Of a stretch of DNA of 47,119 nt, positions 10,217-46,993 are shown piece after piece; the first letter of the stretch is position 1, and each line of letters begins with the position of its first letter. Position numbers and translations under genes: made by a program. Location of the stretch: positions 1 to 47,119 of the forward strand of contig JBKJLC010000242.1 in NCBI GenBank assembly GCA_046597055.1, in the 5' to 3' direction. The notes under the pieces are model-generated. The model was not told the origin of the DNA and ran no database searches. It saw nothing but the letters and a program-made list of their open reading frames with translations. Source of the stretch: Kofleriaceae bacterium (GTDB lineage: Bacteria; Myxococcota_A; Polyangia; Haliangiales; Haliangiaceae).

Positions 10217-10221
10217 GAACC

Positions 10222-10827
10222 GTGATGTCCGCCATCGCCGAGCCCGTGAGCCGTGACGCCGCGCTGGCCTCGCGCTGCGTCGCCGGCGACCGACCGGCGC
10301 AGCGCGAGGTCTTCCAGCTCACCCGCGCGGCGGTCCACCACACGCTGTTCCGGATCCTCGGCTCCAACCAGGACATGGAGGATCTGCTCCAGGAGAGCTT
10401 CCTCGAGATCTTCCGCTCGATGGGTCGCTATGGCGCCCGCTCGAGCCTGGTGACCTGGTGCTGCGCGATCGCGACGCACGTGGCCTTCGGTCACCTGCGC
10501 GGGCGCAAGCGCCCGACCACCGAGCTGGCGACCGACCTGGTCGCCGGTGGGCCCGACGCCGAGCAGGTGACGCTGTCGCGCGAGGCCGCTCGCCGCCTGT
10601 ACGTCGCCCTCGATCGCATCGATCCGGTCCAGCGGGTCGCGTTCGCGCTGGCCGTGATCGACGGCCGGCCGCTCGCGGAGGTCGCCGTGCTGACCGATGC
10701 GTCCCTGTCCGCCGTGAAGACCCAGGTGTGGCGCGCTCGCAAGGAGCTCGACCGCCTGGCCCGCCGTGATCCCGTGCTTTCCGGATATGTCGCCGAGCTC
10801 GCCGCCGGCCAGGAGGAGTTGCCATGA
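10222..10827 (+). CDS. ECF-family RNA polymerase sigma factor
   Basis: Region 2 (EDLLQESFLEIFRS...SSLVTW) and region 4 (LAEVAVLT...AVKTQVWRARKEL). Confidence 0.9.
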   Translation: MMSAIAEPVSRDAALASRCVAGDRPAQREVFQLTRAAVHHTLFRILGSNQDMEDLLQESFLEIFRSMGRYGARSSLVTWCCAIATHVAFGHLRGRKRPTTELATDLVAGGPDAEQVTLSREAARRLYVALDRIDPVQRVAFALAVIDGRPLAEVAVLTDASLSAVKTQVWRARKELDRLARRDPVLSGYVAELAAGQEELP

Positions 10828-11798
10828 CCGCGCTCGGACCCCCGCCGGTCGAAGCGATGACTGACATCGCGTGGGCGCGCGTCGAGCGCGACCTGATGGC
10901 CGCGCTCGATCGCGAGCCGGTCGCCGTGGCCGCCCCGCCGCAGCGCACGCGCTGGTCGCGCGGCGTGATCGTCGCCGGCCTGGCGCTGTCGGTCGCCGCG
11001 GCGATCGCGCTGCTGTGGCCGCGCGCGCTGGCGACCCGACACGACCTGCCGTCGCGGGTGGTGACCGCGAACGCGCCGACCGCGGTCAGCTTCGGCGACG
11101 CCGAGATCACGATCGCGCCGGCGTCGGCGCTGGTCCTGGGCGGCTCGCAGGCCCAGGGCGTCGAGCTCGTGCTCGAGCGAGGCAGCGCGCGGTTCGCGGT
11201 CGCGCCGCGGCGGGGCCGCCCGCCCTTCGTCATCCACGTCGGCGCGGTCGACGTCCGCGTCATCGGCACCGAGCTCACCATCACTCGCACCGGCGACGCC
11301 GCCCGGGTCGAGGTGGTCCACGGCGTGGTCGAGGTCGTCGCGCACGGCCGGCGCGAGCTGCTGCACGCCGGTGCCTCGTGGAGCTCGGACCGGCTGCCGA
11401 CCGTGCCACCGTCGGCGCCCACCATTGCACCGACGCTGCCGGCCGTGGTGCCACCGGCCGCAGTGACGCCCCCGCCACCGGCCGCGACGATCGCCCCGAG
11501 GCAGACGCCATCGGCGCCGCCGGCGATCTCGGTCGATCCGCGCGCGGCCTTCGAGGCCGCGACCGCGCTCGAGTCGCGCGATCCGCACGCCGCGCTGCGC
11601 GCCTACCGCGCCCTGGCCCGCGGCGCCGGGCCGTGGTCGGCCAACGCTCTCTATGCCGCCGCCCGGCTCGCCTTCGATCGCGGCGACACCGCGCTCGCGG
11701 CCCGACTCGCCCGCTCGTACGTCACGCGTTTCCCCCATGGCGCCAACGCGACCGACGCCGATGCCCTGGTTCAGCGCACCCAAGGAGCCCCTCGATGA
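10824..11798 (+). CDS. FecR-domain anti-sigma factor with C-terminal TPR-like domain
   Basis: Single TM segment, LERGSARFAV...VRVIGT...VVHGVVEV FecR motifs, Pro-rich linker and YVTRFPHG TPR end. ATGA overlap with the sigma gene. Confidence 0.85.
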   Translation: MTALGPPPVEAMTDIAWARVERDLMAALDREPVAVAAPPQRTRWSRGVIVAGLALSVAAAIALLWPRALATRHDLPSRVVTANAPTAVSFGDAEITIAPASALVLGGSQAQGVELVLERGSARFAVAPRRGRPPFVIHVGAVDVRVIGTELTITRTGDAARVEVVHGVVEVVAHGRRELLHAGASWSSDRLPTVPPSAPTIAPTLPAVVPPAAVTPPPPAATIAPRQTPSAPPAISVDPRAAFEAATALESRDPHAALRAYRALARGAGPWSANALYAAARLAFDRGDTALAARLARSYVTRFPHGANATDADALVQRTQGAPR

Positions 11799-34408: not shown

Positions 34409-34951
34409 ATGCGTCAGAACGAGCGCGCGCTGCTGGCACTGACCCTGGTCGTCGCGAGCGCGTGCCGCGAGCGCGCACCGCCCCGCGCGCGCCCGCCCGA
34501 GGCCAGCGCGGCGAGCCGCACGGCGTCGAGCAACCCGTCTCCACCCGACGCGGCGGTAGCAGTCGCACCCGCGCCGGCTGACGATCCCATGGCCGAGAAG
34601 CTGCGGCACTGCCCGGTCACCGTCGACGGTGCCGCGGTCGAGCTCCGCGACATCGACGGCGGCATCGAGGTGATCGTCACCGCCGGCGACGCCGCCGCCA
34701 CCGCCGACATCCGGCGCCGCGCGGCCCACCTGGTCGCCTTCTCGCTCGGGCAGGCGACCGGCGGCAAGCACGGCGGCGGCGACGGTGGCGGTTTCATGCG
34801 GAACTGCCCGGTCGTCACCCGCGCCACACAGATCACGTCGACTGCCGTCCCCCGCGGCGCGAGCCTGATCGTACGACCGACCGACGGATCGCCGGTCGCC
34901 GACCTCCGCGCCGAGACCCGCCGCCGCCACGACGCCCTGATCGCCCCGTGA
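34409..34951 (+). CDS. Hypothetical lipoprotein with internal duplication
   Basis: ASAC lipobox; two CPV-initiated repeats separated by a Gly/His linker. Confidence 0.7.
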   Translation: MRQNERALLALTLVVASACRERAPPRARPPEASAASRTASSNPSPPDAAVAVAPAPADDPMAEKLRHCPVTVDGAAVELRDIDGGIEVIVTAGDAAATADIRRRAAHLVAFSLGQATGGKHGGGDGGGFMRNCPVVTRATQITSTAVPRGASLIVRPTDGSPVADLRAETRRRHDALIAP

Positions 34952-35048
34952 CGTTACAAGCGGATGACACCACCCCATGCCCGGGGCGAAGGGACCCCAT
35001 ACCCGCCCGCCATCCGGGCAATACCGCAACAGTCTCGCCAGCTCCCGA

Positions 35049-35064
35049 TGGCCCTGGAGTTGCT
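35049..35064 (+). promoter_or_regulatory. Sigma54 (-24/-12) promoter of the TonB-dependent receptor
   Basis: TGGCCC-TGGAG-TTGCT with exact GG-N10-GC spacing, 15 nt before ATG 35080. Confidence 0.7.
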
Positions 35065-35079
35065 TTGAGCTTGCGCCGT

Positions 35080-37002
35080 ATGCCCCGCCCGCTGCGCTCC
35101 CCCTGGCTCGCCGTGGTGACCGCCCTGGGCGTCACCACCGCCTCCGCCCAGCCGACCCCAGCCCCTGCCCCTGTCGCCACCCTCACGGACGCCGAGCTCA
35201 TCGAGCTCGCCACCCGCGACAGCGAGGTCATCGAGATCTGGGACGAACGGCCGGACAAGCCCTACGATCGCGACACCCAGGTCCGCCTCACCGGGGAGGA
35301 GCTCGCCCAGCGCGGCGCCACCGATCTCGCCAGCGCGCTCGCCCTCCTCCCGGACATCAGCGTCCGCGACGCTGGCCGCGGCGGCGCCAACATCGACATC
35401 CGCGGCGCACGCAAGGGCGCGGTCCGCGTCCTCGTCGACGGCGTCAGCGTCGCCGACCCGTACTACGGCACCTTCGACGTCTCGACGATCCCGGTCACCG
35501 ACATCGTCCAGATCCGCGTCTCGACCGCGCCGGCCTCCCCGATCGACGGCCCCGGCGGGCCCGGCGGCGTGATCGAGGTCCACACCCGCGACGCGATCGG
35601 GGCACGCCTGGTGGTCGCCCGCCTGACCAGCGACTCCCTCCCGACCTTCGGTGGCTCGGCCACCGGACGCACCGCCGTTGCCCGCGACCTGTCGATCCGG
35701 GTATCGGCGTCCGGACTGTGGGGCCTGCGCGAGCTCGAGCTGCCCGCGATGGCGACCCTCGGCGAGAGCCGGCGCGCGACCACCGGCGCCGCTCGCCTCG
35801 AGTATCGCAAGGGCGCTCGCCGGGTCGCGCTCGACACGTTCATCGACAACCGCCGCTACGTGCCCCCACCCAACGAGGAGTCGGCGACCGCCACCATCCT
35901 CGTGATCGATCGCGAGACGACCGGGCGCGGTCAGGTCAGCTTCGACGATCAGCTGGGCCGCGTGCAGGTCCAGGGCCGGGTCTGGACCCACGCGCTCAAG
36001 CGCGTCTCGCGCTACTTCCGCGACCCCGCGCTCGGCGACATCGCCACCGAGGAGGACCTGTTCGCGATGCGGACCGGTGGCACCGCGCTCGCCACCCGGC
36101 CGCTCGCGAAGACCTGGCGCTGGGTCGCGTCGGCGACCGTCGACCACGAACGCGCGCGGGTGGAGGCCATCACCGCCGCGACCGACATCGTGAGCCGCGG
36201 CGACGTCACCTTGCTCGAGGCCGCCGCCGGCGCGCAGTACGAGGACGGCCCGGTGCGGGTCGACGGCGCGGTCGGGGCCGCGGTCCCGCTCGGCCTGGGC
36301 GCCGATCCATGGCCCGAGGCCAAGCTGGTCGGCCGCTACCGCCCCGTGGCCGCGCTCGAGCTGGTCGCGACCGGGGCCCACAAGGGCCGCACGCCGAGCT
36401 TGCGCGAACGGTTCGACACCCAGACCGGCAACCCGGCGCTCGGCCCCGAGATCGCCAGCCACGGTGAGCTCCGCGTGATCGGGCGGCCGATCGAACCCAT
36501 CGAGCTGGAGCTCGCGCCGTACTGGCGGCGCTCCGACGGCACCGTGAAGCTGGCCCCGATGACCAACCGTCTGACCAACCTCGGCACCGTCGACGTCCGC
36601 GGGATCGACGCCAGCGCCAAGCTTCAGGTGCATCCCCGCGTGCAGCTCGGTGGCGCGTACGCGTTGACGCTCGATCGCGCGCGCAACGACGACGCCAGCG
36701 GCTGGCAGGATGACCCGCTCGACCGCCTGCCCGACCACCGCGTCGACGGCTGGGTCAAGGCCACGCCGCACCACCGGATCACCGCGATCGCGCGCGCGCG
36801 CTGGTTCGGAACCGCGATCGACCGCGACGTCGAGGTCGCCAGCTACTACCTGCTCGAGGCGTCGATGTCGGCCCAGCTCGGCGGCGACTGGCTCGGCGTG
36901 ATCCGCTGCGACGACCTGCTCGACGAGCGTCCCGAGACCCGCAACGGCTACCACCTGCCCGGCCGGGTCTTCGCCCTCATGGTGCAGGGCACGTGGCAGT
37001 GA
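35080..37002 (+). CDS. TonB-dependent receptor
   Basis: Plug domain (IDIRG, VLVDGV, GGVIEV), NPALGPE, and a barrel ending PGRVFALMVQGTWQ. Confidence 0.9.
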   Translation: MPRPLRSPWLAVVTALGVTTASAQPTPAPAPVATLTDAELIELATRDSEVIEIWDERPDKPYDRDTQVRLTGEELAQRGATDLASALALLPDISVRDAGRGGANIDIRGARKGAVRVLVDGVSVADPYYGTFDVSTIPVTDIVQIRVSTAPASPIDGPGGPGGVIEVHTRDAIGARLVVARLTSDSLPTFGGSATGRTAVARDLSIRVSASGLWGLRELELPAMATLGESRRATTGAARLEYRKGARRVALDTFIDNRRYVPPPNEESATATILVIDRETTGRGQVSFDDQLGRVQVQGRVWTHALKRVSRYFRDPALGDIATEEDLFAMRTGGTALATRPLAKTWRWVASATVDHERARVEAITAATDIVSRGDVTLLEAAAGAQYEDGPVRVDGAVGAAVPLGLGADPWPEAKLVGRYRPVAALELVATGAHKGRTPSLRERFDTQTGNPALGPEIASHGELRVIGRPIEPIELELAPYWRRSDGTVKLAPMTNRLTNLGTVDVRGIDASAKLQVHPRVQLGGAYALTLDRARNDDASGWQDDPLDRLPDHRVDGWVKATPHHRITAIARARWFGTAIDRDVEVASYYLLEASMSAQLGGDWLGVIRCDDLLDERPETRNGYHLPGRVFALMVQGTWQ

Positions 37003-37028
37003 CCCGCGCCGCACACGGCGTCAACGGG

Positions 37029-38234
37029 TCACCGCAGCCGTCGCCGCGCGACGAGGATCAGCATCCAGGTCACGCCGAGCGCACCGACCGCGGCCGGCGC
37101 CGCGAAGGCCAGCCGGCTGTGGCCGGCAGCGAGCATCAACCCGACGAAGACGCTCGAGCCGAGATCGCCCAGCGCGTTCGCGCTCGCCAGCACGCCGAGG
37201 CCCAGACTCCGGCGCTCGCGGGGGAGCAGCGAGGCGACGACCGCCTTCTCCAGCGTCTCCTCGATCGCGATGTACACACCCGACAGGGCAATCGCGACCA
37301 TCAGCCACGGCAGCGAGCCGCCGCCCAGCGCAAGCACCAGGTTGGTCACCACCCCGAGCGCGTAGCCCACGACCAGGACCCCAGGCTTCGACCAGGCGTC
37401 GCCGAGGCGTCCCGCCGGGTACGCGGCCAGCGCGCTCACCAGGTTGTGACCCGCGTAGAGCAGGATGGCGACCGACAGCAAGCCGCTCGCGCTGGTGGTC
37501 TCGCCGAGCGCCCGCGCCGCCAGCAAGATGAGGAACGTCCGGGAGAAGTCGCCGAGCCCGAACAGCAGCACGCCGCCCACGAACAGCCAGTAGTCGCGCG
37601 GCATCCCAGCCGAGCCTGCCGCTGGTGCGGACGCGGCGGCCGCCGCGGTGGGCGGCGCCGGCCCGACGCGGTCGCGGGTCAGCGCGACGATCGCGCCCAC
37701 CGCGAGCGCCGACGGCACGATGCTCCACAGGATCACCTCGCGGAAGCCGGTCCCGGCCCACACCAGCAGCGCGGCGATCAGCGGCCCCACCACCGCGCCG
37801 ACCATGTCGGCGGCCCGCTCGATCCCGTAGGCGCGGCCGAAGTGGGTCGGGCCGACCTCGTCGGCCAGCATGAAGTCGCGCAACGGCGAGCGGAACCCAC
37901 GCCCGAACCAGGCGACCGCCCGCAGCGAGGCGACCGCGGCGATGACCTGGACCACCGCGATGAGCCCGGTGCCCAGGAGGGTCAGCGCGTACCCCGCGGC
38001 GGCCCACGGTCGCTTGCGCTGGACGCGGTGGCCGACCGCACCACCGGCGAGCTTCGACAGGCTGAAGGCCAGGTCGGCCGCGCCCTCCATCATGCCCAGC
38101 GCGGCCGGCCCCATGCCGAGCGCCGCCACGTACAGCGGCAACACGGCGGTGACCATCTCGTGACCGACGTCGGAGAAGAACGTCGCCACCACGATGCCGA
38201 CGACGGTGCGGGTCACCCAGCGCCGGTCGTTCAT
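37029..38234 (-). CDS. MFS transporter
   Basis: 401 aa with about 12 hydrophobic segments; SDVGHEM, GRGFRSPLRD and GRLGDAWS. ATGA overlap with the upstream lipoprotein. Confidence 0.9.
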   Translation of the reverse strand: MNDRRWVTRTVVGIVVATFFSDVGHEMVTAVLPLYVAALGMGPAALGMMEGAADLAFSLSKLAGGAVGHRVQRKRPWAAAGYALTLLGTGLIAVVQVIAAVASLRAVAWFGRGFRSPLRDFMLADEVGPTHFGRAYGIERAADMVGAVVGPLIAALLVWAGTGFREVILWSIVPSALAVGAIVALTRDRVGPAPPTAAAAASAPAAGSAGMPRDYWLFVGGVLLFGLGDFSRTFLILLAARALGETTSASGLLSVAILLYAGHNLVSALAAYPAGRLGDAWSKPGVLVVGYALGVVTNLVLALGGGSLPWLMVAIALSGVYIAIEETLEKAVVASLLPRERRSLGLGVLASANALGDLGSSVFVGLMLAAGHSRLAFAAPAAVGALGVTWMLILVARRRLR

Positions 38235-39106
38235 TCGCCGACGACTCCGCGCAAGGTCGCGGTGGCAACCCCGCCCCGGTCGTCGTGGAGCACGGCCCAG
38301 AGCTGCACCGGGCCCGGCGTGCTCGGTGCCGTCCAGGCCACCTCGCCGGTGCCGGTCGCGTCCGCCGCGACCCCGCCGGCGGTCGCGAACCAGCTGACAC
38401 GCAGGACCTCGACGCGATCGACCAGCACGGCGTCGGCGCGATCGTAGCGAACGTACGGTTCGGCCGCGCCGTCCGGCCAGGCCGCGACCAGGGTCACCGT
38501 CTCGCCGGCGACGATCGTGGCCGGGTCCGCCGCGCGCCCGTCGCGCACGACCGCGAGCGAGCTGAGCGTCGGGTGCTGGTTGCGCCGGTAGCGCTCGCGG
38601 TACTCGCGCACGATCGCCGGCGGCGCGTCGCCCAGGTTGCACGCGATGCGATGCAGCCCGAACGTGATCGGTGCCCCGTCGAGGCCGACCCGCACCGGCT
38701 GGTAGTAGCCGCCGGTGGGATCGGGATCGCGCGGGCGGAAGCCGCCGAGCGGGGTGTCGGGTCCGTAGGTCGCGCACGCAGCGGCCGGCATCGTGGCGGT
38801 GACGGTCGGCCCGTCGCCAAGCGGCGCGAGCGCGGCCGGGTCGTCGACGCACGGCGGCGGCACCACGTTGTCCTCGGTCGGTGGCTTGGGGGCCGTGCAG
38901 TGGGCCCAGGCCAGGGCCGGTGCGGTCACGGGCCCGTCGGGGCTGGCGACCACGGCGGCGTAGCTCACCACGTCCCGCGGCGCGGCCTCGGCGGGCTCGG
39001 CGACCACCGCGAGCACGCGCGGCCCGTCGATCCGCGACACCTGCTGATCGAGTGGATCGACGCACGCCGACCAGGCCGCCAGCGCCAGGAGCACCGGGGC
39101 CCTCAC
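38231..39106 (-). CDS. Lipoprotein partner of the TonB-dependent receptor
   Basis: WSAC lipobox; PRVLAVVAEP, WFATAG, WTAP and LHDDRGG. GTGA overlap with the receptor. Confidence 0.78.
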   Translation of the reverse strand: MRAPVLLALAAWSACVDPLDQQVSRIDGPRVLAVVAEPAEAAPRDVVSYAAVVASPDGPVTAPALAWAHCTAPKPPTEDNVVPPPCVDDPAALAPLGDGPTVTATMPAAACATYGPDTPLGGFRPRDPDPTGGYYQPVRVGLDGAPITFGLHRIACNLGDAPPAIVREYRERYRRNQHPTLSSLAVVRDGRAADPATIVAGETVTLVAAWPDGAAEPYVRYDRADAVLVDRVEVLRVSWFATAGGVAADATGTGEVAWTAPSTPGPVQLWAVLHDDRGGVATATLRGVVGE

Positions 39107-41370
39107 AGCCGCCACCGCACCCCGGCCAGCACCAGGAACGGCAGCCCGGTCAGGTAGCCGCGGGTGGCGTAGTCGCCACTCCACACCAGCTCCTCGGCGT
39201 TGGCGCGACCGCTGACATTCTCGAGCTCGATGAAGGCGGCGATCTCGGTCGCACCGACGCGGACCCGGCGCTCGCCACGCAGGTCGATCTGCGCGAAGTC
39301 GGGCAGCCGGATGCCGTAGAGCGCGCCCGTGACCGGCTGATAGCGGCTGGCGCGCGCGTCCCAGAAGGCGGCGATCACGTCGGTCCGCGGCGCGCCGGTC
39401 GCGAACCGGATGCGCGTGCTCGCCAGCCACCGGCCGTGCTCGACGGTCGCCGCCAGCGTGAGCTGGTGGGTCTGGTCGTGCTCGAACCGCCGCCACGCCG
39501 CCGCATCGGCGTCACGACGCTCGCTGCGGCCCAGCCCGTACGCGATCCAGCCCGACAGGCCGCGCCAGCCGCGCAGACGCGCGACCAGCTCGGCGCCCAT
39601 CGCGCGACCGCGGCCGGCCTGGGTGAGCGTCGCCGCGAGCGGCGGCGTCGCCGACGGGTCGCGCGCGACCAGCTCGCCCAGGCGTCGGCCCCAGCCGGTG
39701 AGCTCGAGATCGGCGACGGCGACCCGCACGGTCGTGGTCACCGTCGCGTGCCAGGCGTGCTCGAGGGCCAGGGTCGGCGAGCCGAACACCGCGCTGGTGT
39801 CGTCGGGACGGCGGGTCTGGTGGTAGCGACCGACCGCGCCGGCGATCGCGACCCGACCGCGCCGCGCCGCCACCGCCAGCCGCGGGTCGGCGGTGACGAG
39901 GACCCGCTGGAACCCGATCCCGGGGGTCGAGCCGACCCGCGGCGTGCGCCGACTCGCGCCGAGGATCCAGGCGTCGGCGCGCAGCCCCGGGCTGACCGTG
40001 AACCAGTCGGTCACCCAGTCACTCTGGACGTACGCGCCGACGTCGCCGGTCAGCGCGGTCCAGCGGTCGGACGCCACGTCGTCGCCCGGCGGCTGCCCGA
40101 ACACCGAGAGGTCGCCTTCGCGGGTCGGGATCGACAGCGAGCCGTCGCGCCGGAGCACGGCGCGCGACCCGGTGGCGTCGATCCCGAGTAGCAGGACCAC
40201 CGGTCCCGCGGTGGTGCGACGTTCGGCGCGGACGCCGCCCGACCCCACCCGCTGGTGCAGCCCGGCGGGCACCGCCCCGAACCGCTGGTCGCGATCGTCG
40301 AGGTCGAGGCCAACCCACGCGCGCAGCCGGGCCTCGCCGTCGGCGAGCGTGCCGCGCCACGCCACCGACGCCCGCGCGAAGTCCTGACGCCGGTCGTCCG
40401 ACTTGGTCGCCGCCGGATCCATCGACGGCAGCGTCCGCTCCAGGCGATCGCCGCCCGCGAGGACGAGGACGTCGAGCCGATCGGCGCCGATCGGCACCTG
40501 CGCCACCAGCTGGGCATCGGCCCAGCGCGGGATCGGGATGCGCTCGGCGACCGCGGGATCGATCGCCTCGCCGACCACGCGGTCGAGGTAGCTCGCGCGC
40601 ACGCCGGCGGCGACCCGGGCCCGACCCACCCGCCCGGTGGCGACCACGCCGGTGTCGATGAAGTCGCTGGCGACCGTGACCGAGCGCGTCCCCGGCAGCT
40701 CGGCGGTCGTCACCCGGACCAGGCCGCCAGTGGCGCCGCTCCAGGGCGTCGCGAAGCCGGCGCGGTCGATCGCCAGCGTCGCGACCAGCTCGGTCGGGAT
40801 GATCGAGCGCCAGCCGCCGAGGTGGTACAGCGCGGGCACCGGCACGTCGTCGATGAGGATCGCGGTGTCCAGCGGGGCCGAGCCCCACACGACGATCTCG
40901 CGGGTCCCGGCCGCGGCCCGCGCAACCCCGGGCGTGCTCTGCACCGCCTTGAGCGCGTCGCCGCCGCTGCCGGCCTGCTGCGCCGCCCGGCGGGCATCGA
41001 TCGTCGTCTGCCCGGGTACCAGCGGCGCGGTGTCCTCGACCTCGACCGTCTCGCCGCCGTCGAGGTCGACCTCGACCGTGACGTCGAGCGTGCGGCGCTC
41101 GCCCGGCGCGAGCACCAGCTCGACCCGGGTGACCCGCACGTAGTCGGCCTCGACCACCACCGCGGTCGCACCGGGCGCGAGCTCGAGCGTGTAGCGCCCG
41201 GTCTCGTCGGTGAACGTGACGGTCGTCCCGGCGGTCACCTGCACGCCCGGCAACGGCTCGCCGCTGGCCGCATCGAGCACGCGGCCGGTCACGGTGGCCG
41301 GTGCCGGCTGCGCCTGCGCGCTTGCCGACGCGGTCGCGACCCCAGCGAGCGCGAGCCAGGCCCGGGTCAT
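39103..41370 (-). CDS. TonB-dependent receptor with N-terminal carboxypeptidase-regulatory-like domain
   Basis: VTGRVLDAASGEPLPGV, plug (ILIDDVPVPALYH), FEHDQTH and DLRGER. Confidence 0.9.
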   Translation of the reverse strand: MTRAWLALAGVATASASAQAQPAPATVTGRVLDAASGEPLPGVQVTAGTTVTFTDETGRYTLELAPGATAVVVEADYVRVTRVELVLAPGERRTLDVTVEVDLDGGETVEVEDTAPLVPGQTTIDARRAAQQAGSGGDALKAVQSTPGVARAAAGTREIVVWGSAPLDTAILIDDVPVPALYHLGGWRSIIPTELVATLAIDRAGFATPWSGATGGLVRVTTAELPGTRSVTVASDFIDTGVVATGRVGRARVAAGVRASYLDRVVGEAIDPAVAERIPIPRWADAQLVAQVPIGADRLDVLVLAGGDRLERTLPSMDPAATKSDDRRQDFARASVAWRGTLADGEARLRAWVGLDLDDRDQRFGAVPAGLHQRVGSGGVRAERRTTAGPVVLLLGIDATGSRAVLRRDGSLSIPTREGDLSVFGQPPGDDVASDRWTALTGDVGAYVQSDWVTDWFTVSPGLRADAWILGASRRTPRVGSTPGIGFQRVLVTADPRLAVAARRGRVAIAGAVGRYHQTRRPDDTSAVFGSPTLALEHAWHATVTTTVRVAVADLELTGWGRRLGELVARDPSATPPLAATLTQAGRGRAMGAELVARLRGWRGLSGWIAYGLGRSERRDADAAAWRRFEHDQTHQLTLAATVEHGRWLASTRIRFATGAPRTDVIAAFWDARASRYQPVTGALYGIRLPDFAQIDLRGERRVRVGATEIAAFIELENVSGRANAEELVWSGDYATRGYLTGLPFLVLAGVRWRL

Positions 41371-42260
41371 GGCGGGAGATCGAGCTCGATCGCCGTGATG
41401 CCGGCGCCGGTCCCGTGCGGCAACCGGGTGTGATCGACCGTCGCGATCCCGGCCGCGGTCGCGAGCGGCTCGAGCCCGCCGTCGCGATAGACGGCCGCAT
41501 ACCAGTACCCGACGGCGTCCCCGCACAGCGAGCGCGCGTCGACCCGCACCAGGTACCGACCGGCCGGTGGCGGTACCGACCAGATCACGTGCTCGCGCGG
41601 GCGCGGATCGCGCCGGCACGCGCGGTTCCCGTCGTGGTCGAGGCGCCCGCCGGACCGCCACGCGATCGGATCGGACGGGGTGCCCGGCGGCGGTGGCTCC
41701 CATGTGTTGGGGTCGCCCGCCCACGCCTCGCCGCCGTCGGGCGCGACCACGTGCAGATCCAGATCGGCGGCGCCGCTCCAGCCGAGCGCGATCACCAGCT
41801 CACCGGCCGGTGGCGGAAGGTCGTCGGCGACCAGCGCGAGCGCGCGCGGCGCCCCGGGCCGACCGGCGGCGTCGACCGCGAGCAGGCGCAGCGTGATCGG
41901 CCCGAGCGGCACCGACGCCGCCAGCGCCAGCTCGAGAGCAAAGCTCGGCTGATCGGGCGCGTCGACGCTGGGCGGTCCCGCGGGGACGATCCAGCCGCCG
42001 TCGTCACCGTCGAGGCCGACCCACAGCGCGGTCGCGCCGGCACCGAGCGCGCCGGCCACGCGCTGGCCGCTGGCGTCGCGCAGCAGGGTCGCCCGCTGCG
42101 ACAGCACGCTCTCGACCGCGGGCCCATTGGCGGCAGCCGGGGCCGGGCCCGGCCGCCACTGCGCGCCCTCGACCTGCAGCAGCGCGTCGTAGCCGGGATC
42201 GGGCGACGCGCTCGTGCAGGCGACCAGCGCGAGCGTGACCGTGGCCCCGAGGCGACGCAT
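41367..42260 (-). CDS. Lipoprotein with YfaP/DUF2135-like C-terminal domain
   Basis: LVAC lipobox; LGWSGAADLDLHVVAPDG, LDHDGN, EHVIW and GRYLVRV. Confidence 0.75.
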   Translation of the reverse strand: MRRLGATVTLALVACTSASPDPGYDALLQVEGAQWRPGPAPAAANGPAVESVLSQRATLLRDASGQRVAGALGAGATALWVGLDGDDGGWIVPAGPPSVDAPDQPSFALELALAASVPLGPITLRLLAVDAAGRPGAPRALALVADDLPPPAGELVIALGWSGAADLDLHVVAPDGGEAWAGDPNTWEPPPPGTPSDPIAWRSGGRLDHDGNRACRRDPRPREHVIWSVPPPAGRYLVRVDARSLCGDAVGYWYAAVYRDGGLEPLATAAGIATVDHTRLPHGTGAGITAIELDLPP

Positions 42261-43540
42261 CAGAAGCTCACCTGAGCCCGCACCGTGACCCGATCGGCGG
42301 CGACCGTGGTCGGCGCGCCGTCGAGCCCGCGGCCGCGCGGGTTGTCCTCGTGGGCGTACTGCAGGATCAGGCGCGCGTGAGCGGTGTGCGCCTCCGCGGC
42401 CACCGCCAGGGTGCGATAGCGCGGATCGGTCGGGACGATCATCGCGCCCTGTGCCTCGCTGGCATCGCGGTCCGGCCGGTACTCGTCGTAGCGCACGGCG
42501 ATCTGACCGTGCGGGGTGATCGCCTGCACCACCATCACCTGCCAGCCGAGCTCGCGCAGATCGCGATCGGCCGCGATCGGGTCGGCGTACTCCCGCCCGC
42601 GATCGAGGTTGGTCGCGAGCGAGACCTCGACCGACAGCTCGCCGCGACCCAGCGCGCACAGGCACCAGCCGATCGCCAGATCGGCCCCCACCGCCGCGTG
42701 ATCGAAGCGCTCCGACGGCGTGGCCGGCGCGCCGCTGGTGGGGACCAGCTCGGTGATCTGGACGATGCCGTCCTCGTTGCCGTCGACCCACTCGACGTCG
42801 TCCTTGATCGCCGGCGTACCGGGATGAAGGCCGCGCCCGGTGAGCGCCGACACCCCGCCGGCGACGATCACCAGCTCGCCGAGCTGACCGCGGGCGCCGG
42901 CTCGACCGACCAGGTCCCAGCTCGACGACGGGTCCCGACCCTTGAACTGGGCATCGCCCGACGGCGCACTGTTGGTGAGCGCGACGGCCAGCTCCACGCC
43001 GCGCCACGCCGCGGTCGCCAATACGCCCCCGTCGTAGCTGCCCGGGAACAGCGCGCGTCCGGCCGCCCCGGCCTCGAGCATCACCCGGTCCTGGTCCGAC
43101 TGGGGCACGTCTCGGCCGAAGGGCACCTTGAAGACCCCGAGCGCGAGGGAGGCGTCGACCCCGTGCTGCTGCCAGCGCGCGCCGGCCCGCGCCGAGATGA
43201 TGCGCGCGGTGGGGCCGTCGATCGTGTTGCCATCGAGCTCGAGTCGCCCGAACAGCTCGTCACGGGTGACCTCGGCCTTGAGGCGCGCCCGCCGCACGAG
43301 GACCCGCTCCTGGTTGAGCGGGTCGCCGTCCACACCCAACTCGTCGACCGAGCCCTGGTCCCACGGGATCAGATCGGTCTGCAGGTAGCCCGAGATCGGC
43401 GACGGCGTCGGCGCCGGCTCGGGCTCGGCAGACGCTGGGCCCGCCGACGCGGTCAGGACTACGGCAGCGCCGGCAACCCACCATCGGGCAGCAGCAGCGG
43501 CAGGGTCGGCGTCTTGTAGATCTTCTCGGCCGTGGTGCAC
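42260..43540 (-). CDS. OprO/OprP-like outer-membrane porin; start uncertain
   Basis: GYLQ, VRRARL, GVFKVPFG and LE...RALFPG motifs; C-terminal Phe. The nearest in-frame GTG is at 43540, inside the upstream gene. Confidence 0.78.
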   Translation of the reverse strand: MHHGREDLQDADPAAAAARWWVAGAAVVLTASAGPASAEPEPAPTPSPISGYLQTDLIPWDQGSVDELGVDGDPLNQERVLVRRARLKAEVTRDELFGRLELDGNTIDGPTARIISARAGARWQQHGVDASLALGVFKVPFGRDVPQSDQDRVMLEAGAAGRALFPGSYDGGVLATAAWRGVELAVALTNSAPSGDAQFKGRDPSSSWDLVGRAGARGQLGELVIVAGGVSALTGRGLHPGTPAIKDDVEWVDGNEDGIVQITELVPTSGAPATPSERFDHAAVGADLAIGWCLCALGRGELSVEVSLATNLDRGREYADPIAADRDLRELGWQVMVVQAITPHGQIAVRYDEYRPDRDASEAQGAMIVPTDPRYRTLAVAAEAHTAHARLILQYAHEDNPRGRGLDGAPTTVAADRVTVRAQVSF

Positions 43541-43710
43541 GCGTTGATGATCTCCTGGTGCGTCTGCGGATTGGTGATGCACGCCGCGTCGGACTCACCG
43601 GCGCCAGCGTCGGTGGCGGCGTCTCCACCCCGAGCGTCGGGGCTGTCGGCACCATCGTCACCGCAGCCCACCGCCAGCACAACCATCACGGACAGGAACA
43701 GCGCGCGCAT
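43459..43710 (-). CDS. Small lipoprotein (83 aa)
   Basis: AVGC lipobox, CITNP...IINAC and LPLLLPDGGLPALP tail. SD GAGG upstream. Confidence 0.78.
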   Translation of the reverse strand: MRALFLSVMVVLAVGCGDDGADSPDARGGDAATDAGAGESDAACITNPQTHQEIINACTTAEKIYKTPTLPLLLPDGGLPALP

Positions 43711-43712
43711 GG

Positions 43713-44954
43713 TCACCTCGCCTCGCAGAAGCCGTTGCGGCAGACGCCGGTCGCGCACGCGGTGGTTGGACTGCACGTCGCGCAGGACGTCGTCGCGGTC
43801 TGGCTCTCGAAGTAGCAGGTGCAGTCCTCGGCCGGCGTGTAGGACGACAGATTGCCGCCCTCCGAAGCGCGCTGGACCTTCATGGCGCAGTCCGGGACGA
43901 GCCCGTTGTGCATCACGACGTTGGTCGCGTTGAAGTTCGGCGTCGGGGTGACGGTGCGGCCGAGGATCAGATCGATGACGTACTTCGCGCGCACATTGTC
44001 GATCACGGCGCCGGTCTGCCGGGTCAGGTAGACAGTCGGCGACCACACCGTGTAGTGGCCATCCCGCACGTTCTGCTTGTCGAGCGAGCTGGCCGACGAG
44101 TCGGGAAAGTAGGCCGCCCACTGCCCGAAGCCCCGGAACGCGAGCACGTCGAGCTCGTTGCGGAACTGGTCGTAGACCTCCGCGCCGAGGATGCCAATCG
44201 CCTTCTCGGGGGTCGTCGAACCGCGCAGCGCGTTGACCACCATCGTCGAGCTGTCGTGGCGGATGCCCTTCCACTTCGTCACCGGGACCACGCCGAGGTT
44301 GTACGCCCACGACAGCAGCGTGCTCTTGCTGTTGGTGCGGCCCTGCATCTGCGATTCGTCGTCCCACGGCGTGATCATGCCGGCCTGGCCGAAGCCGAAG
44401 ACGAAGTACGCCTCCTCGGCGGTGATCGCGCTCTGCGTGCTCGCCTCAGGCACCGCCATGACGTAGGCCTGCACCGGCCCGTTGAAGACCGCGATGTCGG
44501 CGGGCACCGGATTGGTGTCACAGGCGCTGATGAAGACGTTGGAGTTCGCGATGTCCGCGATCGCCCCCCCGGTCGGTGGCGTGCACGGCAGGGCCGCCAT
44601 CGCGGGCGTCCACCCGGCGTTCTCCGCGGTCGACGGGACGTAGAGCAGGTTGGTCGTGATCGGCGTATCGGCGTAGATCGCCTGGATGTTCACGCATGAG
44701 CCGGACGTGACGTAGACGAGGGTGGTCGGGTTGGCGGTGTTGTCCCGCAGCGCCCGAGCCAGCTCCTTGATCAGCGGCTGCTGGGTGTCGCCGATCTGGA
44801 GGTAGACGACGTTGCCGAGATCCTGGCACCGCGGCACCGGCTGGGCCTCGGCGTGGCCGCCCGGCAGCGCCGCGCCGCCGACCGCCACCAACCCGGCGGC
44901 AAGCCCCGCGGTCGCCAGCGTACGTCTCACCTTCGAAGCCACGCGCGCGCCCAT
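43713..44954 (-). CDS. Secreted PstS-like (type II periplasmic binding fold) protein with Cys-rich C-terminus
   Basis: GSC, DIANSNV, ITAEEAYFVFG, RTNSKST and AIGIL parallel the conserved PstS blocks. SD AGGAGG upstream. Confidence 0.7.
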   Translation of the reverse strand: MGARVASKVRRTLATAGLAAGLVAVGGAALPGGHAEAQPVPRCQDLGNVVYLQIGDTQQPLIKELARALRDNTANPTTLVYVTSGSCVNIQAIYADTPITTNLLYVPSTAENAGWTPAMAALPCTPPTGGAIADIANSNVFISACDTNPVPADIAVFNGPVQAYVMAVPEASTQSAITAEEAYFVFGFGQAGMITPWDDESQMQGRTNSKSTLLSWAYNLGVVPVTKWKGIRHDSSTMVVNALRGSTTPEKAIGILGAEVYDQFRNELDVLAFRGFGQWAAYFPDSSASSLDKQNVRDGHYTVWSPTVYLTRQTGAVIDNVRAKYVIDLILGRTVTPTPNFNATNVVMHNGLVPDCAMKVQRASEGGNLSSYTPAEDCTCYFESQTATTSCATCSPTTACATGVCRNGFCEAR

Positions 44955-45005
44955 GAATCCTCCTGGGGCGCAGCCTTCGCAAGCTGCGTGCCGCGCCCCG
45001 ACTCG

Positions 45006-45073
45006 AGGATAGAGGCGACCGAACGCCCGACCCATTACACCCGCCCTACAGCCTGGTTACACCCCGATTACAT
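45006..45073 (-). promoter_or_regulatory. Four Pho-box-like direct repeats at 11-bp periodicity plus -10 TATCCT
   Basis: Minus-strand ATGTAAT, GTGTAAC, CTGTAGG and GTGTAAT begin at 45073, 45062, 45051 and 45040. TATCCT is at 45011-45006. Confidence 0.75.
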
Positions 45074-45121
45074 CGACGGATGGCGTGGGGTGGTGGGTCG
45101 CCATCCGCACCCCCACCGGCG

Positions 45122-46993
45122 CTACAGGCCGCGCAGCATGACGTCGGCGAGCGCCTTGCTGAACCGGTCGGGATCCGGGACCTGGCCGGAGTCGGCCAGG
45201 TAGGCCTGGCCCAGCAAGAGCTGCGCATACACGGCCAGTCGCGGATCCGCGGCGTCCTCGGTCGCGATCGCCTGCAGCTTCGGCAACAGCGGATGGCCGG
45301 GGTTGAGCTCGAGGATCGGCAGCGCGTTGGGCGCCGGCTGACCGAGTTGCTCCAGCATCTTCTGCATGCGCGGGCTGAGGTCGTGCTCGTCAGCCACCAG
45401 ACACGCGGGCGACGAGGTCAGGCGCCCCGACAGCCGCACCTCCTTGACGTGGGCCTGCAACGCCGCCTTGAAGCTGGTGAGCAGCTCGCCGAGCTCGCGC
45501 TGTTTCTCGTCGATCGCGGCCGCCGACTGCTTGCGCTCCTCCTCGGAGCCGAGCTTCACGTCGCCGCGGCCGATCGACTGCATGGGCTTGTCCTTGAACC
45601 GGGGCGCCCGCTCCAGCCAGATCTCGTCGACCGGGTCGGAGAACAGCAGGACCTCGTAGCCCTTGGCCGCGAAGGCCTCGAGCAGCGGCGAGCGCGCCGC
45701 CGCCTCCTTGGTCGGCCCGGTCAGGAAGTAGATCGCCTCCTGGCCCTCCTTCATGCGCCCGACGTAGTCGTCGAGCGAGGTCAGCGCGGTCGCGTCATGG
45801 GTCGACGACGTGATGACCAGGTCGAGCAGCTTGTCCTTGTCCTGGGTGTCGTAGTTGGCGAGCCCCTCCTTGATCACCGGGCCGAACGCGGCCCAGCAGG
45901 TGAGGTACTCGCTCGCGCTATCACGCTTCATCTCGTCGAGCGTCGACAGCACCCGGCGCACCAGCTGCTTGCGGATCACCGGAATCTGCCGGTCCTTCTG
46001 CAGGATCTCGCGCGACACGTTGAGCGACAGATCGTGGGCATCGACCACGCCCTTGATGAAGCGCAGGTGCGACGGCATCAGCTCCTTGCACTCGTCCATC
46101 ACGAACACGCGCTTCACGTAGAGCTGGAGGCCGCGCTTCATCTCCGGGCTGTACAGATCGAACGGCGGGCTGGCCGGGATGTACAGCAGCGCGTAGGCCT
46201 CGAGCGTGCCCTCCATCTTCACCGGGATGGTCCGCAGCGGCGGGGTCCAGTCGTGCGAGATGTGGCGATAGAACTCGTGGTACTCGGTCTCCGCCACCTC
46301 GCTCTTGGGGCGAAACCAGATCGCCTTCATCGAGTTGAGCGTCGCCTCGCCGTGCCGGATCGGATACGCGACGAAGTCCGAGTAGCGCTTGACGATCTCC
46401 TTCAGGATCGACTCGCTGGTGTAGTCCTTCAGGCCGTGCTCGACGTCCTCGGCCTTGAGGTGGAGCGTCACGGTGGTGCCGGCGTGCTCGCGCTCGGCGT
46501 CGGCGACCGTGTAGCTGCCGTCGCCGGTCGACTCCCACCGGGTGGCCTGGTCGGCGCCGGCGCGCCGGGTCACCAGCGTGATCCGGTCGGCGACCATGAA
46601 CGCCGCGTAGAAGCCGACCCCGAACTGGCCGATCAGCTCGGGCGGGACCTCCTTGCGCTGCGCGTCCTTGACCGTGGCCAGGAACTCGCGCGTGCCTGAC
46701 TTGGCGATGGTGCCGATGCTGCGGATCACCTCGTCGCGGGTCATCCCGATCCCGTTGTCGCTGACCGACAGGGTGCGGGCCGCCTTGTCGACCTCGAGCC
46801 GGACCTGGGCCTCGTCGGGGGCGGCCAGGTCGGCGTTGGTCAGCTGCTCGAAGCGCCGCTTGTCGAGCGCGTCCGACGCGTTCGAGATCAGCTCGCGCAG
46901 GAAGACGTCCTTGTCGGAGTACAGCGAGTGGACCATGAGGTCGAGGAGCTGCTTCACCTCGGCCTGGAATTCGTGACGTTCGGGTTGGCTCAT
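45122..46993 (-). CDS. htpG: Molecular chaperone HtpG (Hsp90)
   Basis: FQAEVKQLL, FLRELISNASDA, DNGIGM, IGQFGVGFY and LNVSREILQ. Confidence 0.97.
   Translation of the reverse strand: MSQPERHEFQAEVKQLLDLMVHSLYSDKDVFLRELISNASDALDKRRFEQLTNADLAAPDEAQVRLEVDKAARTLSVSDNGIGMTRDEVIRSIGTIAKSGTREFLATVKDAQRKEVPPELIGQFGVGFYAAFMVADRITLVTRRAGADQATRWESTGDGSYTVADAEREHAGTTVTLHLKAEDVEHGLKDYTSESILKEIVKRYSDFVAYPIRHGEATLNSMKAIWFRPKSEVAETEYHEFYRHISHDWTPPLRTIPVKMEGTLEAYALLYIPASPPFDLYSPEMKRGLQLYVKRVFVMDECKELMPSHLRFIKGVVDAHDLSLNVSREILQKDRQIPVIRKQLVRRVLSTLDEMKRDSASEYLTCWAAFGPVIKEGLANYDTQDKDKLLDLVITSSTHDATALTSLDDYVGRMKEGQEAIYFLTGPTKEAAARSPLLEAFAAKGYEVLLFSDPVDEIWLERAPRFKDKPMQSIGRGDVKLGSEEERKQSAAAIDEKQRELGELLTSFKAALQAHVKEVRLSGRLTSSPACLVADEHDLSPRMQKMLEQLGQPAPNALPILELNPGHPLLPKLQAIATEDAADPRLAVYAQLLLGQAYLADSGQVPDPDRFSKALADVMLRGL

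Follow-up and report, generated by a model that had tools for sequence, protein, structure and literature searches.

Which nutrient does a bacterium take up with a PstS-like binding protein, a porin and a TonB receptor that are encoded together, with no ABC permease beside them? The question is raised by the window analysed here, a stretch of 47,119 nucleotides from a Kofleriaceae bacterium of the Myxococcota (contig JBKJLC010000242.1). An earlier note on this DNA had read the locus as a Pho-box-controlled, "Sus/PUL-like" machine that captures a phosphorus source at the cell surface and uses an MFS permease rather than an ABC importer at the inner membrane.

Operon structure and conservation of the cassette

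GC3 frame analysis and start-codon mapping resolved seven consecutive genes, G1 to G7, on the minus strand of positions 37029-44954 (Table 1), confirming the seven-gene operon claimed previously. Five of the six junctions are as the earlier note had given them: a 2-nt gap between G1 and G2, TGATG at G3/G4, ATGA at G4/G5, GTGA at G5/G6 and ATGA at G6/G7. The sixth is different, since the start of G3 overlaps G2 by 82 nt; GTG 43540 was taken as this start because it is the sole in-frame start ahead of the G3 signal peptide, and an AGGAG sits 10 nt 5' of it. G1-G7 are a real, translationally coupled operon. No sigma-70-like promoter was found inside 36800-45300, and the one terminator-like site in this interval is at chance level.

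Table 1. Genes of the operon and upstream elements, in window coordinates
Feature	Positions	Strand	Description
G1	43713-44954	-	413 aa, Sec signal peptide, AGGAGG ribosome-binding site; secreted, not a lipoprotein
G2	43459-43710	-	83 aa, lipoprotein, lipobox LAVGC
G3	42260-43540	-	426 aa, secreted outer-membrane protein
G4	41367-42260	-	297 aa, lipobox, lipoprotein
G5	39103-41370	-	755 aa, TonB-dependent receptor, N-terminal CarboxypepD_reg domain
G6	38231-39106	-	291 aa, lipobox, lipoprotein
G7	37029-38234	-	401 aa, MFS_1 permease
Direct repeats	45029..45072	-	TGTAATCGGGG, TGTAACCAGGC, TGTAGGGCGGG, TGTAATGGGTC; exact 11-bp spacing; units start at 45072 (TGTAA), 45061 (TGTAA), 45050 (TGTAG) and 45039 (TGTAA)
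TATCCT	45006..45011	-	-10-like TAnnnT hexamer, putative promoter element; starts 28 nt past the start of the last repeat
CGGCACGCAGCTTGCG	44978..44993	-	sigma-54 -24/-12-like element, 2 mismatches; 39 nt upstream of the G1 ATG

Of 201 Myxococcota genomes sampled, 22 encode a member of the G1 family. A synteny check across the phylum found the co-occurrence of G1-G6 on which the earlier proposal depended: the six genes occur in order at loci L012, L014, L016 and L018 and at 12 of 14 further loci, and among the 20 other genomes with G1, G3 lies no more than 2 kb from G1 in 14 and G6 lies 3-6.5 kb past G3 in 15. G1-G6 are a cassette conserved across Myxococcota, and G1, G3 and G6 have at least 932, 229 and 626 homologues, respectively. 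G1-G2-G3 also occur without G4-G6, in L013 and L062. Genes for exbB-exbD-tonB lie between G4 and G5, directly upstream of G5, in L014 and L018, and their embedding in the cassette supports a functional link of G5 to ExbB-ExbD-TonB; 11 of 15 clusters have a TonB_C gene in the interval from G3 to G6, and in most lineages G4-G6 thus come with exbB-exbD-tonB genes of their own. The permease gene G7, on the other hand, was found at none of the 8 and none of the 14 other cassette loci and is particular to the window's locus. In four lineages, moreover, the cassette is fused to ABC importers, and the idea of a system built on MFS rather than ABC does not hold.

Predicted folds and families of the encoded proteins

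The AF2 model of G1 (pLDDT 89.4, pTM 0.85) was compared with known structures by Foldseek and VIA, and every top match in both is an oxyanion-binding protein. The top Foldseek matches are PstS (E = 1e-11; TM by target 0.78-0.80 to 4exl), and VIA returns 13 PstS-type rows with Z from 24.0 to 16.6, the best being 4ecf (Z 24.0, rmsd 2.7 over 253 residues). Beyond PstS come ModA (Z 15.1), SubI (14.9), Sbp (1sbp, 14.7) and TupA (13.5), the similarity to 1sbp sitting within the generic tail. The predicted model thus confirms a PstS-type class II periplasmic binding-protein fold, on which the earlier proposal had also turned, and the label "PstS-like" is upheld by predicted fold only. G1 has no Pfam or NCBIfam match even at E <= 10. 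A profile of the family (21 members) run against PDB sequences recovered no PstS, only chance-level matches, as did single-sequence searches of G1 and G3 against PDB chains. Nor does G1 belong to the Sbp/CysP family (TIGR00971), which has zero matches genome-wide at E <= 0.001. In a profile-profile alignment by hhalign, G1 and the PstS of its own lineage are collinear along 247 columns (E = 0.018, probability 2.6%); the alignment is too weak for its columns to be trusted, and sets G1 GDTQ opposite PstS GSST and G1 R206-T-N-S-K-S-T212 opposite PstS G-A-G-V-D-S-G-T. G1 also carries a conserved Cys-rich C-terminal tail.

G2 consists of an acidic/Gly-rich linker and a conserved C-terminal peptide, C-x-T-N-P-Q-T-H-x-E-I-I-N-A-C-T...L-P-L-L-L-P-D-G-G-L-P-x-L-P. 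A small lipoprotein lies between G1 and G3 in all 8 relatives' loci in which the gap was read (7 by lipobox scan and L016 by eye, six of them aligned with G2). A three-chain complex prediction with G1 (36-413), G3 (39-426) and G2 (40-83) as partner gave no answer: the score of G2 stayed high when an unrelated protein replaced G3, so the prediction is uninformative on binding either way.

The porin call for G3 stands, while its resemblance to OprO/P is weak: against Porin_O_P (PF07396) G3 scores 11.3 bits (E = 0.2; cutoff 20.9). When eight database homologues were rescanned, four failed and four passed (23.5-30.6 bits), the latter being those picked for a precomputed PF07396 hit; among six locus orthologues, two give sub-threshold matches. 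All PF07396 matches in the family span only the first ~140 of 370 model positions, and one homologue is named 'phosphate-selective porin' by NCBI. These matches hint weakly that G3 may be a distant Porin_O_P relative.

G2, G4 and G6 belong to no Pfam family. G4 was labelled a YfaP-like lipoprotein. The lipoprotein part is sound; YfaP is only an Atlas lead (to DUF2135/YfaP, 0.85 and 0.84), and neither G4 nor its 5 orthologues have any Pfam match at E <= 10, PF09906 included. G5 itself scores 18.1 bits for Plug, under the 23.9 cutoff, and three of its four orthologues exceed the Pfam cutoffs for both Plug and TonB_dep_Rec_b-barrel, confirming the TonB receptor. The SusC model TIGR04056 touches only residues 26-72 of G5, in the N-terminal domain (25.3 bits against a cutoff of 368), and SusD models match neither G4 nor G6; "Sus/PUL-like" therefore survives only as an analogy. 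G6 is predicted to consist of beta-sandwich domains of Ig/PKD-like type in tandem and to lack an enzymatic fold; neither Foldseek (generic Ig-like matches, TM about 0.2) nor VIA (Z <= 9.7, C-terminal domain only) found a specific relative. G7 is confirmed as an MFS permease by PF07690 (MFS_1; 99.9 bits, cutoff 33.4), and its NCBIfam matches are all far under their cutoffs.

The upstream repeat array and the case for phosphate

TGTAA alone has 512 occurrences in the 8.38-Mb genome, both strands counted, but TGTAA-N6-TGTAA occurs once, upstream of G1, against ~0.016 expected. The array is kept in two orthologous promoters, as TGTAAT/GGTAAC/GGTAAC/TGTAAT in L017 and TGTAAC/CGTAAC/CGTAAC in L012, each adjoining a divergently transcribed gene for a PhoB-like regulator. 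It has the architecture of a Pho box, with at least two 11-bp direct repeats standing where a -35 element would be, and the +28 spacing from repeat to hexamer recurs in L017 with TAGCGT. The 11-bp repeats reported earlier are thus genuine and of OmpR/PhoB type, and the array is predicted from its sequence to bind a response regulator of that family. A genome search for further arrays added one two-unit site, C137:1200, which is too few to define a regulon. The sigma-54-like element CGGCACGCAGCTTGCG may be a chance match, the background of matches with up to 2 mismatches being 0.57 per kb.

Does this array make the operon part of the phosphate response? The lineage's own pstS Pho box reads TGTCGCA-N4-CGTGACC-N4-TGTCACA followed by CCTAGGGT in ~11 of the 16 pstS promoters listed from the window's genome and its relatives. 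The core of the array, TGTAAY, agrees with TGTCAY at 5 of 6 positions; the exception is an A instead of C at position 4, and this same C-to-A change is present in all three orthologous promoters (window, L017 and L012). The array is not a TGTCAC-type box, and "Pho-box-controlled" cannot be retained.

If the locus served to scavenge phosphate, the ligand of G1 would be phosphate or a phosphorylated compound, and G3 would act as a porin of OprO/P type for phosphate or polyphosphate. A larger source of phosphorus would enter through the TonB receptor, and a PhoB-type regulator would induce the genes under phosphate starvation. The likeness to PstSCAB with OprO/OprP extends over the predicted fold of G1, where the 13 best VIA rows and the best Foldseek matches are PstS proteins and the profile alignment to PstS is collinear, over the G3 family with its four PF07396-positive members and its 'phosphate-selective porin', and over the architecture of the repeats. 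PhoB-like regulators adjoin the cassette in L012, L017, L014 and L049; PhoB is the best NCBIfam model for 3 of 3 cassette-side regulators scanned, against 0 of 6 control regulators, and in the window's genome their best match is the PhoB encoded beside PhoR-pstSCAB (47% identity), no dedicated orthologue having been found in this 94% complete assembly. Low-phosphate-induced TonB transporters with downstream lipoproteins are, moreover, known in Flavobacterium (PMC8115612).

We nevertheless consider this reading unlikely, though still a serious rival. The PhoB-model scores, 180-264 bits (264 for the regulator of genome G202), are all under the curated cutoff of 296, and of 20 further genomes only 1 has a PhoB-like regulator next to the cassette. 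G1 matches none of the PstS sequence models (PF12849, TIGR02136, TIGR00975) and differs from PstS in its Cys-rich tail, and the cassette comprises a TonB receptor and three lipoproteins and has no PstCAB adjacent to it, the genome encoding a separate canonical PstS-PstCAB, with its TGTCAC-type Pho box, on contig C145. The flanks of 19 clusters, assessed through the 39 of 171 ORFs that pass the GC3 filter and with L053, L055 and L056 barely covered, yielded no gene of the pst, pho, phosphatase, nuclease or phytase kinds. This bears out the absence of a PstCAB permease that the earlier note had pointed to; the phosphate context is not supported. Sulfate-type ABC importers flank four clusters and sulfur enzymes flank three more.

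Sulfur genes beside the cassette and the nature of the cargo

In four lineages, represented by genomes G196, G135, G106 and G009, the cassette adjoins the genes of a sulfate-type ABC importer (sbp-cysT-cysW-cysA); as the genomes are related, the four lineages (families f25, f39, f44 and f1) overstate the independence of this evidence. In G196, sbp (447 bits), cysT (344; cutoff 246), cysW (338; cutoff 329), cysA (363; cutoff 343) and a sigma-54 activator gene precede G1...G6, all co-directional. In G135, G6 is followed co-directionally by an unknown gene, an Sbp-family gene (203; cutoff 155), cysA (370; cutoff 343) and a sigma-54 activator gene. An Sbp-family gene (224), two sulfate-type permease genes, a cysA-like gene and a sigma-54 activator gene lie ~4 kb past G6 in G106, and in a paralogous cluster of G009, sbp (468), cysT, cysW (402) and cysA (390) converge on G6. 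Cystathionine gamma-synthase adjoins G1 in L051 (535 against a cutoff of 513), as do PLP enzymes of CuyA/D-cysteine-desulfhydrase type, below cutoff, in L058 and L060, the latter neighbourhood also holding MetK; cysteine-dioxygenase-like fusions lie near the cassette in L057 and L061.

Control points the same way in some lineages. Exact sigma-54 elements number only 15 in 1.02 Mb, and four of them lie within 250 nt upstream of G1 (L050, L051, L053 and L057); in G106 such elements also precede the Sbp-family operon and the CDO-like gene. The cassette thus sometimes shares sigma-54 promoters and an activator with a sulfate-type importer.

The window itself also contains sulfur-assimilation genes (cysH, a siroheme-type methylase, sulfite reductase and ChaC, at 2100-6842), which favours the sulfur link, but they lie ~30 kb away and no cys transporter gene adjoins the operon. 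Neither Sbp nor CysW was found in G015, the 99% complete genome with the closest full orthologue; the cassette can therefore do without CysTWA. Among genomes with G1, 8 of 22 have Sbp, against 19 of 179 of those lacking G1; this enrichment speaks for the sulfur link and rules out the idea that G1 replaces Sbp.

Our preferred reading, which we advance tentatively and as somewhat short of probable, is that the G1-G6 cassette scavenges a sulfate-class oxyanion at the outer membrane, with sulfate or thiosulfate the most likely cargo, ahead of phosphate. Passage across the outer membrane would be by a selective porin, G3, and/or the TonB-energised receptor G5, and G1, possibly tethered by G2, would act as a high-affinity binding sink. 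From there the cargo would pass to an inner-membrane importer, Sbp-CysTWA where this is fused to the cassette and, in the window, the co-translated permease G7. Transcription in the window would depend on an OmpR/PhoB-family response regulator acting on the four 11-bp GTAAY repeats, and in other lineages on a sigma-54 activator common to the cassette and the cys-type ABC operon. With Sbp/CysP-CysTWA such a system would share the handling of a tetrahedral oxyanion by a class II binding protein, adjacency or fusion in four lineages and, in G106, a sigma-54 regulon; unlike it, G1 is not of the Sbp family and resembles Sbp only generically in fold, the known system has no dedicated outer-membrane components, and the window's locus has an MFS permease instead.

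Several observations run against sulfate: the fold of G1 is closest to phosphate binders, the sole family signal of G3 is Porin_O_P, and the neighbouring regulators are PhoB-like. Sulfate is also rarely scarce enough to need TonB-energised uptake, which counts against this reading.

Alternatively, the cargo could be an oxyanion present in traces, of group VI or related to it (molybdate, tungstate, selenate, vanadate or arsenate), and carried secondarily by the sulfate-type ABC importers; TonB-energised, binding-protein-assisted capture would then make physiological sense. G1-G2-G3 of L013 lie directly downstream of an HTH_3 plus PBP_like (PF12727) regulator that matches best, among NCBIfam models, the binding domain of a 'molybdopterin biosynthesis protein'; PF12727 is a type of domain present in tungstate- and molybdate-sensing regulators. 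L057 has an FdhF/YdeP molybdoenzyme gene upstream of G1, the CysT/CysW-like permeases of G106 score only slightly higher with sulfate models than with molybdate ones, the ABC operon of G106 has arsenic-resistance genes (ACR3, ArsH) beyond it, and ModA is the next fold class after PstS for G1. Molybdenum-related neighbours, however, occur in only 2 of 19 clusters, the neighbouring enzymes are those of sulfur metabolism rather than molybdenum-cofactor genes, the ABC genes of G196 and G009 are equivalog-level sulfate transporters, and G1 is far nearer PstS (Z 24) than ModA or TupA, which together make a trace oxyanion improbable.

Just as improbable is a division of labour in which the TonB receptor, G4 and G6 take up organic sulfur or phosphorus (for instance as a sulfonate, sulfate ester or cysteate-like molecule) and G1-G2-G3 handle the inorganic anion released from it. 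In its favour, L013 and L062 have G1-G3 on their own, four clusters are flanked by genes resembling CuyA-type sulfo-lyase/desulfhydrase or cysteine dioxygenase, and G6, and probably G4 as well, is a beta-sandwich lipoprotein without enzymatic character, like the surface partners of TonB transporters, but no sulfatase, sulfonatase or monooxygenase gene lies inside the clusters, the PLP-enzyme matches are far under their cutoffs (150 bits against 450), and at least 12 of 14 loci keep both modules side by side.

A sulfate-class cargo would set the cassette apart from the systems described so far. Full-text literature searches found no paper describing this gene set, and the available portion of PMC12581299 does not report a sulfur-starvation-induced TonB receptor. 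The PusCD and orphan TonB transporters of Flavobacterium (PMC8115612) likewise combine a TonB transporter with accessory lipoproteins for a macronutrient other than iron or glycans, and have a receptor with an N-terminal carboxypeptidase-regulatory-like domain; the cassette differs in phylum, in having no SusD-like partner, in its binding-protein-fold component and anion porin, and in a context that points to sulfur. It is possible, though rather doubtful, that this is the first dedicated outer-membrane machine for sulfur oxyanions, in which a PstS-fold protein was re-tooled for sulfate or thiosulfate, works with an anion-selective porin, a TonB-energised receptor and two accessory lipoproteins, and feeds Sbp-CysTWA or, here, an MFS permease; the cassette would be widespread among Myxococcota of soils, with control rewired between lineages to a PhoB-like regulator or a sigma-54 activator.

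Even if the cargo were phosphate, a PstS-like protein with a porin and a TonB receptor and with an ABC or MFS partner at the inner membrane is undescribed in the literature searched. If the sulfate-class reading is true, functions could be given to five protein families now all annotated 'hypothetical', and the PstS fold in a non-phosphate context would be a caution against annotating by fold alone. Sulfate and other small oxyanions are assumed to pass the outer membrane passively; some soil predators would then spend energy on capturing a small oxyanion at the cell surface, an undescribed route of sulfur uptake.

Gene order and conservation of the operon

The window is one entire contig of an 8.38-Mb assembly (73% GC), and its proteins have named homologues in Kofleriaceae and Myxococcales metagenome bins. 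Gene models were built by third-position GC (GC3) frame analysis combined with start-codon mapping, which resolved the seven consecutive minus-strand genes of an earlier note, here termed G1 to G7 in order of transcription. The coupled junctions described in that note were recovered as a 2-nt gap followed by TGATG, ATGA, GTGA and ATGA, except that G3 overlaps G2 by 82 nt, because the GTG at 43540, with AGGAG ahead of it, is the sole start codon preceding the G3 signal peptide. Several homologues cover 100% of the resulting 426-aa model; the public call for this gene (P0121, 345 aa) starts well within the protein and misses the signal peptide. No sigma-70-like promoter was found inside the operon, and the one terminator-like match corresponds to the chance level. 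The htpG gene lies upstream on the same strand.

Features of the window
Feature	Position	Strand	Remarks
Array upstream of G1 (unit starts)	45072, 45061, 45050, 45039		TGTAA, TGTAA, TGTAG, TGTAA
G1	43713-44954	-	413 aa; Sec signal peptide; AGGAGG ribosome-binding site
G2	43459-43710	-	83 aa; lipoprotein
G3	42260-43540	-	426 aa; secreted
G4	41367-42260	-	297 aa; lipoprotein
G5	39103-41370	-	755 aa; receptor
G6	38231-39106	-	291 aa; lipoprotein
G7	37029-38234	-	401 aa; MFS
Second TonB-dependent receptor	34948-37002	+	unrelated; Plug 66.9 bits
ECF sigma factor, then FecR-type anti-sigma protein	10216-11795	+	Sigma70_r2/r4_2
NIR_SIR sulfite reductase	4866-6842		
Tetrapyrrole (siroheme-type) methylase	4241-5104		
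PAPS reductase CysH	2855-3685		
ChaC-like	2100-2672		

The second receptor gene converges on G7, with 26 nt from stop to stop, and its matches to B12/siderophore-type receptors are weak. An ECF sigma factor with a FecR-type anti-sigma protein, as encoded elsewhere in the window, is the customary signalling pair of a TonB transducer.

Homologues of G1 were found in 9 of 41 relatives and, in a sample of 201 genomes from across the phylum, in 22; the window's genome is included in both counts. Among the first eight loci from related genomes, L012, L014, L016 and L018 carry G1-G6 in order, the clusters of L019 and L017 are truncated by the locus ends, L013 has G1-G2-G3 only and L015 G1 only. Of the 20 further G1 genomes, 14 have G3 no more than 2 kb away from G1, 3 have it at a non-adjacent position and in 3 the two are parted exactly at contig ends; G6 follows 3-6.5 kb past G3 in 15. 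The order G1-G3-G4-G5-G6 was observed in 12 of 14 further clusters, establishing for G1-G6 the synteny across Myxococcota for which a search had been proposed.

In L014 and L018, genes for ExbB, ExbD and TonB separate G4 from G5, and 11 of 15 clusters, exactly those with a gap of ~5.5 kb, carry a TonB_C gene in the G3-G6 interval; the cluster in the window is of the short form, among those without the embedded gene. In the 11 tonB-bearing clusters the long receptor ORF opens with a second TonB_C-like match (G178:C3:2136565-2136789 and G202:C1:2122518-2122745, in two sampled genomes, and nine more clusters), so the N-terminal domain of the G5 orthologues there appears to be TonB_C-like, in place of the CarboxypepD_reg of the window's G5. 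G7 is a local addition: its homologues are absent from all 8 + 14 other loci, and it is assigned to this operon because of its ATGA overlap with G6.

Predicted identities of the encoded proteins

The binding protein (class II), anion porin, TonB receptor and MFS permease of the operon are all parts of known kinds. Pfam and NCBIfam searches extended to E <= 10 left G1 without a match. Its family counts at least 932 proteins, all named members of which, among the matches listed, are 'hypothetical'. The AlphaFold2 model of G1, built on a 21-sequence alignment, is confident (pLDDT 89.4, pTM 0.85). Foldseek placed PstS best (4exl: E = 1e-11, TM by target 0.78-0.80, 14% identity) and ModA next; an independent structure search, VIA, returned 13 phosphate-binding proteins on top (Z 24.0-16.6), followed by a flat generic tail of ModA (15.1), SubI (14.9) and Sbp (14.7). 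The predicted fold is clearly PstS-type, in agreement with the earlier assignment. Cysteines are conserved in the family, and the C-terminal tail is Cys-rich.

A small lipoprotein occupies the G2 position in 8 of the 8 relatives' loci where the G1-G3 gap was read, and its C-terminal peptide is strongly conserved. The description of G3 as an OprO/P-like porin is weakly supported: some homologues carry PF07396, with matches spanning the first third of the model only, and G3 itself reaches E = 0.2. G4 is a lipoprotein as described; its likeness to YfaP comes down to an Atlas lead to DUF2135 (0.84-0.85), and neither G4 nor five orthologues matched a Pfam family. G5 combines a CarboxypepD_reg domain with a Plug match below threshold, and three of four orthologues passed for both Plug and TonB_dep_Rec_b-barrel, confirming a TonB receptor. 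G6 represents a family of at least 626 members without a Pfam domain; its confident model (pLDDT 87.5) consists of tandem Ig/PKD-like beta-sandwiches, for which structure searches found no specific relative. G7 matches MFS_1, as expected of an MFS permease, with no subfamily assignable from Pfam/NCBIfam matches.

The upstream array and its candidate regulators

The 11-bp-spaced TGTAA-type repeats noticed upstream of G1 were mapped as four units. TGTAA is present in just 512 copies on both strands of the whole genome, and TGTAA-N6-TGTAA occurs a single time, in this array. The array is kept in the two closest orthologous promoters, as TGTAAT/GGTAAC/GGTAAC/TGTAAT with 11-bp spacing in L017 and as TGTAAC/CGTAAC/CGTAAC in L012, and a -10-like TAnnnT lies at +28 in the window and L017 alike. 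In L017 and L012 it adjoins a divergently transcribed OmpR-family response regulator gene. The best NCBIfam model for the regulators at L017, L012 and L014 was PhoB (TIGR02154; 201, 188 and 180 bits, cutoff 296), a model that ranked first for 0 of 6 other OmpR-family regulators encoded in the window's genome. Of the 20 further genomes, G202 alone showed such a PhoB-like regulator in divergent orientation (264 bits). No dedicated orthologue was found in the window's genome, where the nearest match (47% identity) lies on contig C145, adjoining a PhoR-like kinase and pstSCAB.

Canonical pstS promoters in the window's genome and most of 15 relatives contain TGTCGCA-N4-CGTGACC-N4-TGTCACA, then CCTAGGGT; the box is clearest in L035, L039, L042-L045 and L047, with L046 being the genome's own C145, and was seen in about 10 of the 15 relatives' loci. 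CCTAGGGT is a -10-like element only ~10-15 nt from the pstS start codon, which suggests very short leaders. The G1 array has the same architecture as the pstS box, but core position 4 is A rather than C in all three orthologous promoters. Because of this substitution, the array reads as the predicted site of a PhoB-like paralogue outside the canonical Pho regulon, and the Pho-box control proposed earlier was not upheld. Elsewhere in the genome the pair GTAAC-N6-GTAAC recurs just once (0.21 expected by chance), outside the window at C137:1189-1215, ~120 nt upstream of the gene for a 392-aa secreted beta-barrel-like protein, with a sigma-54 activator gene just upstream of the pair.

Genomic neighbours and the proposed cargo

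We tentatively favor an anion of the sulfate/thiosulfate class as the cargo of the cassette, at somewhat short of even odds. Sulfate-type ABC importers are contiguous with it in four lineages of four different families. In G196, sbp, cysT, cysW, cysA, a sigma-54 activator and G1 to G6 are co-directional and tightly packed; in G135, G6 is followed co-directionally by one unknown gene, an Sbp-family gene, cysA and a sigma-54 activator; in G106, an Sbp-family gene, two sulfate-type permeases, a cysA-like gene and a sigma-54 activator lie ~4 kb past G6; and in a paralogous cluster of G009, sbp, cysT, cysW and cysA converge on G6. With G7 in 0 of the 8 + 14 other loci, these importers do not bear out the earlier proposal that the system uses an MFS permease rather than an ABC importer. 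Sbp was detected in only 27 of 201 sampled genomes, in 8 of 22 with G1 versus 19 of 179 without it; in three of the eight, it is no more than 5 kb away from the cluster.

Exact matches to the sigma-54 -24/-12 element are infrequent (15 across 1.02 Mb of loci, 38 in the whole genome), and L050, L051, L053 and L057 each have one a short way upstream of G1. In G106, further exact elements precede the Sbp-family operon and a CDO-like gene, linking cassette and importer to a single activator there. Genes for ACR3 arsenite efflux and ArsH (L066:778-3063, G106:C75) lie directly past the sigma-54 activator of this Sbp-family operon. Other flanks encode a cystathionine gamma-synthase (L051, above cutoff), CuyA/D-cysteine-desulfhydrase-type PLP enzymes (L058 and L060, below cutoff), MetK (also L060) and cysteine-dioxygenase-like flavoprotein fusions (L057, L061). 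The ~30-kb distance to the operon makes the sulfur genes of the window itself (2100-6842) weak support for the sulfur reading.

Several observations count against sulfur. Phosphate, though an unlikely cargo, would fit the clearly PstS-type fold of G1, Porin_O_P as the sole family signal of G3 and the PhoB-like character of the cassette-adjacent regulators; no pst, pho, phosphatase, nuclease or phytase genes were found in the scanned flanks of 19 clusters, a scan that within one batch took in 39 of 171 listed ORFs (immediate flanks passing the GC3 filter) and scarcely covered L053, L055 and L056. Neither Sbp nor CysW was found in G015, a 99% complete genome carrying the closest complete orthologue, and Sbp is unmatched in the window's genome, where cysW-cysA sits at a contig end and the adjacent break could hide one. 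A trace oxyanion such as molybdate is improbable: molybdenum-related neighbours, also counted against sulfur, accompany 2 of 19 clusters, L013 with an HTH+PBP_like regulator and L057 with an FdhF/YdeP gene. Just as improbable is an organic sulfur or phosphorus compound entering through the receptor.

We propose a model in which the cassette would raise the outer-membrane flux of a scarce tetrahedral oxyanion through two modules, the first comprising the G1 binding protein, the G2 small lipoprotein and the G3 anion porin, and the second the G4 lipoprotein, the G5 TonB receptor and the G6 lipoprotein, with a private ExbBD-TonB as an option. G1, possibly tethered by G2, would serve as a high-affinity sink, either periplasmic or surface-located, and the cargo would then be passed to Sbp-CysTWA or, in this genome, to G7. 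Among systems described so far, PstS/OprP, Sbp-CysTWA and the PusCD/TonB clusters of Flavobacterium come nearest, the last of which one study describes as induced by low phosphate, with lipoproteins downstream (PMC8115612). The listings and abstracts from a full-text literature search showed no paper on this gene set or on a TonB-linked sulfate system. The cassette is widespread, conserved and made of uncharacterised families, and its most likely cargo runs counter to what the fold alone would suggest.
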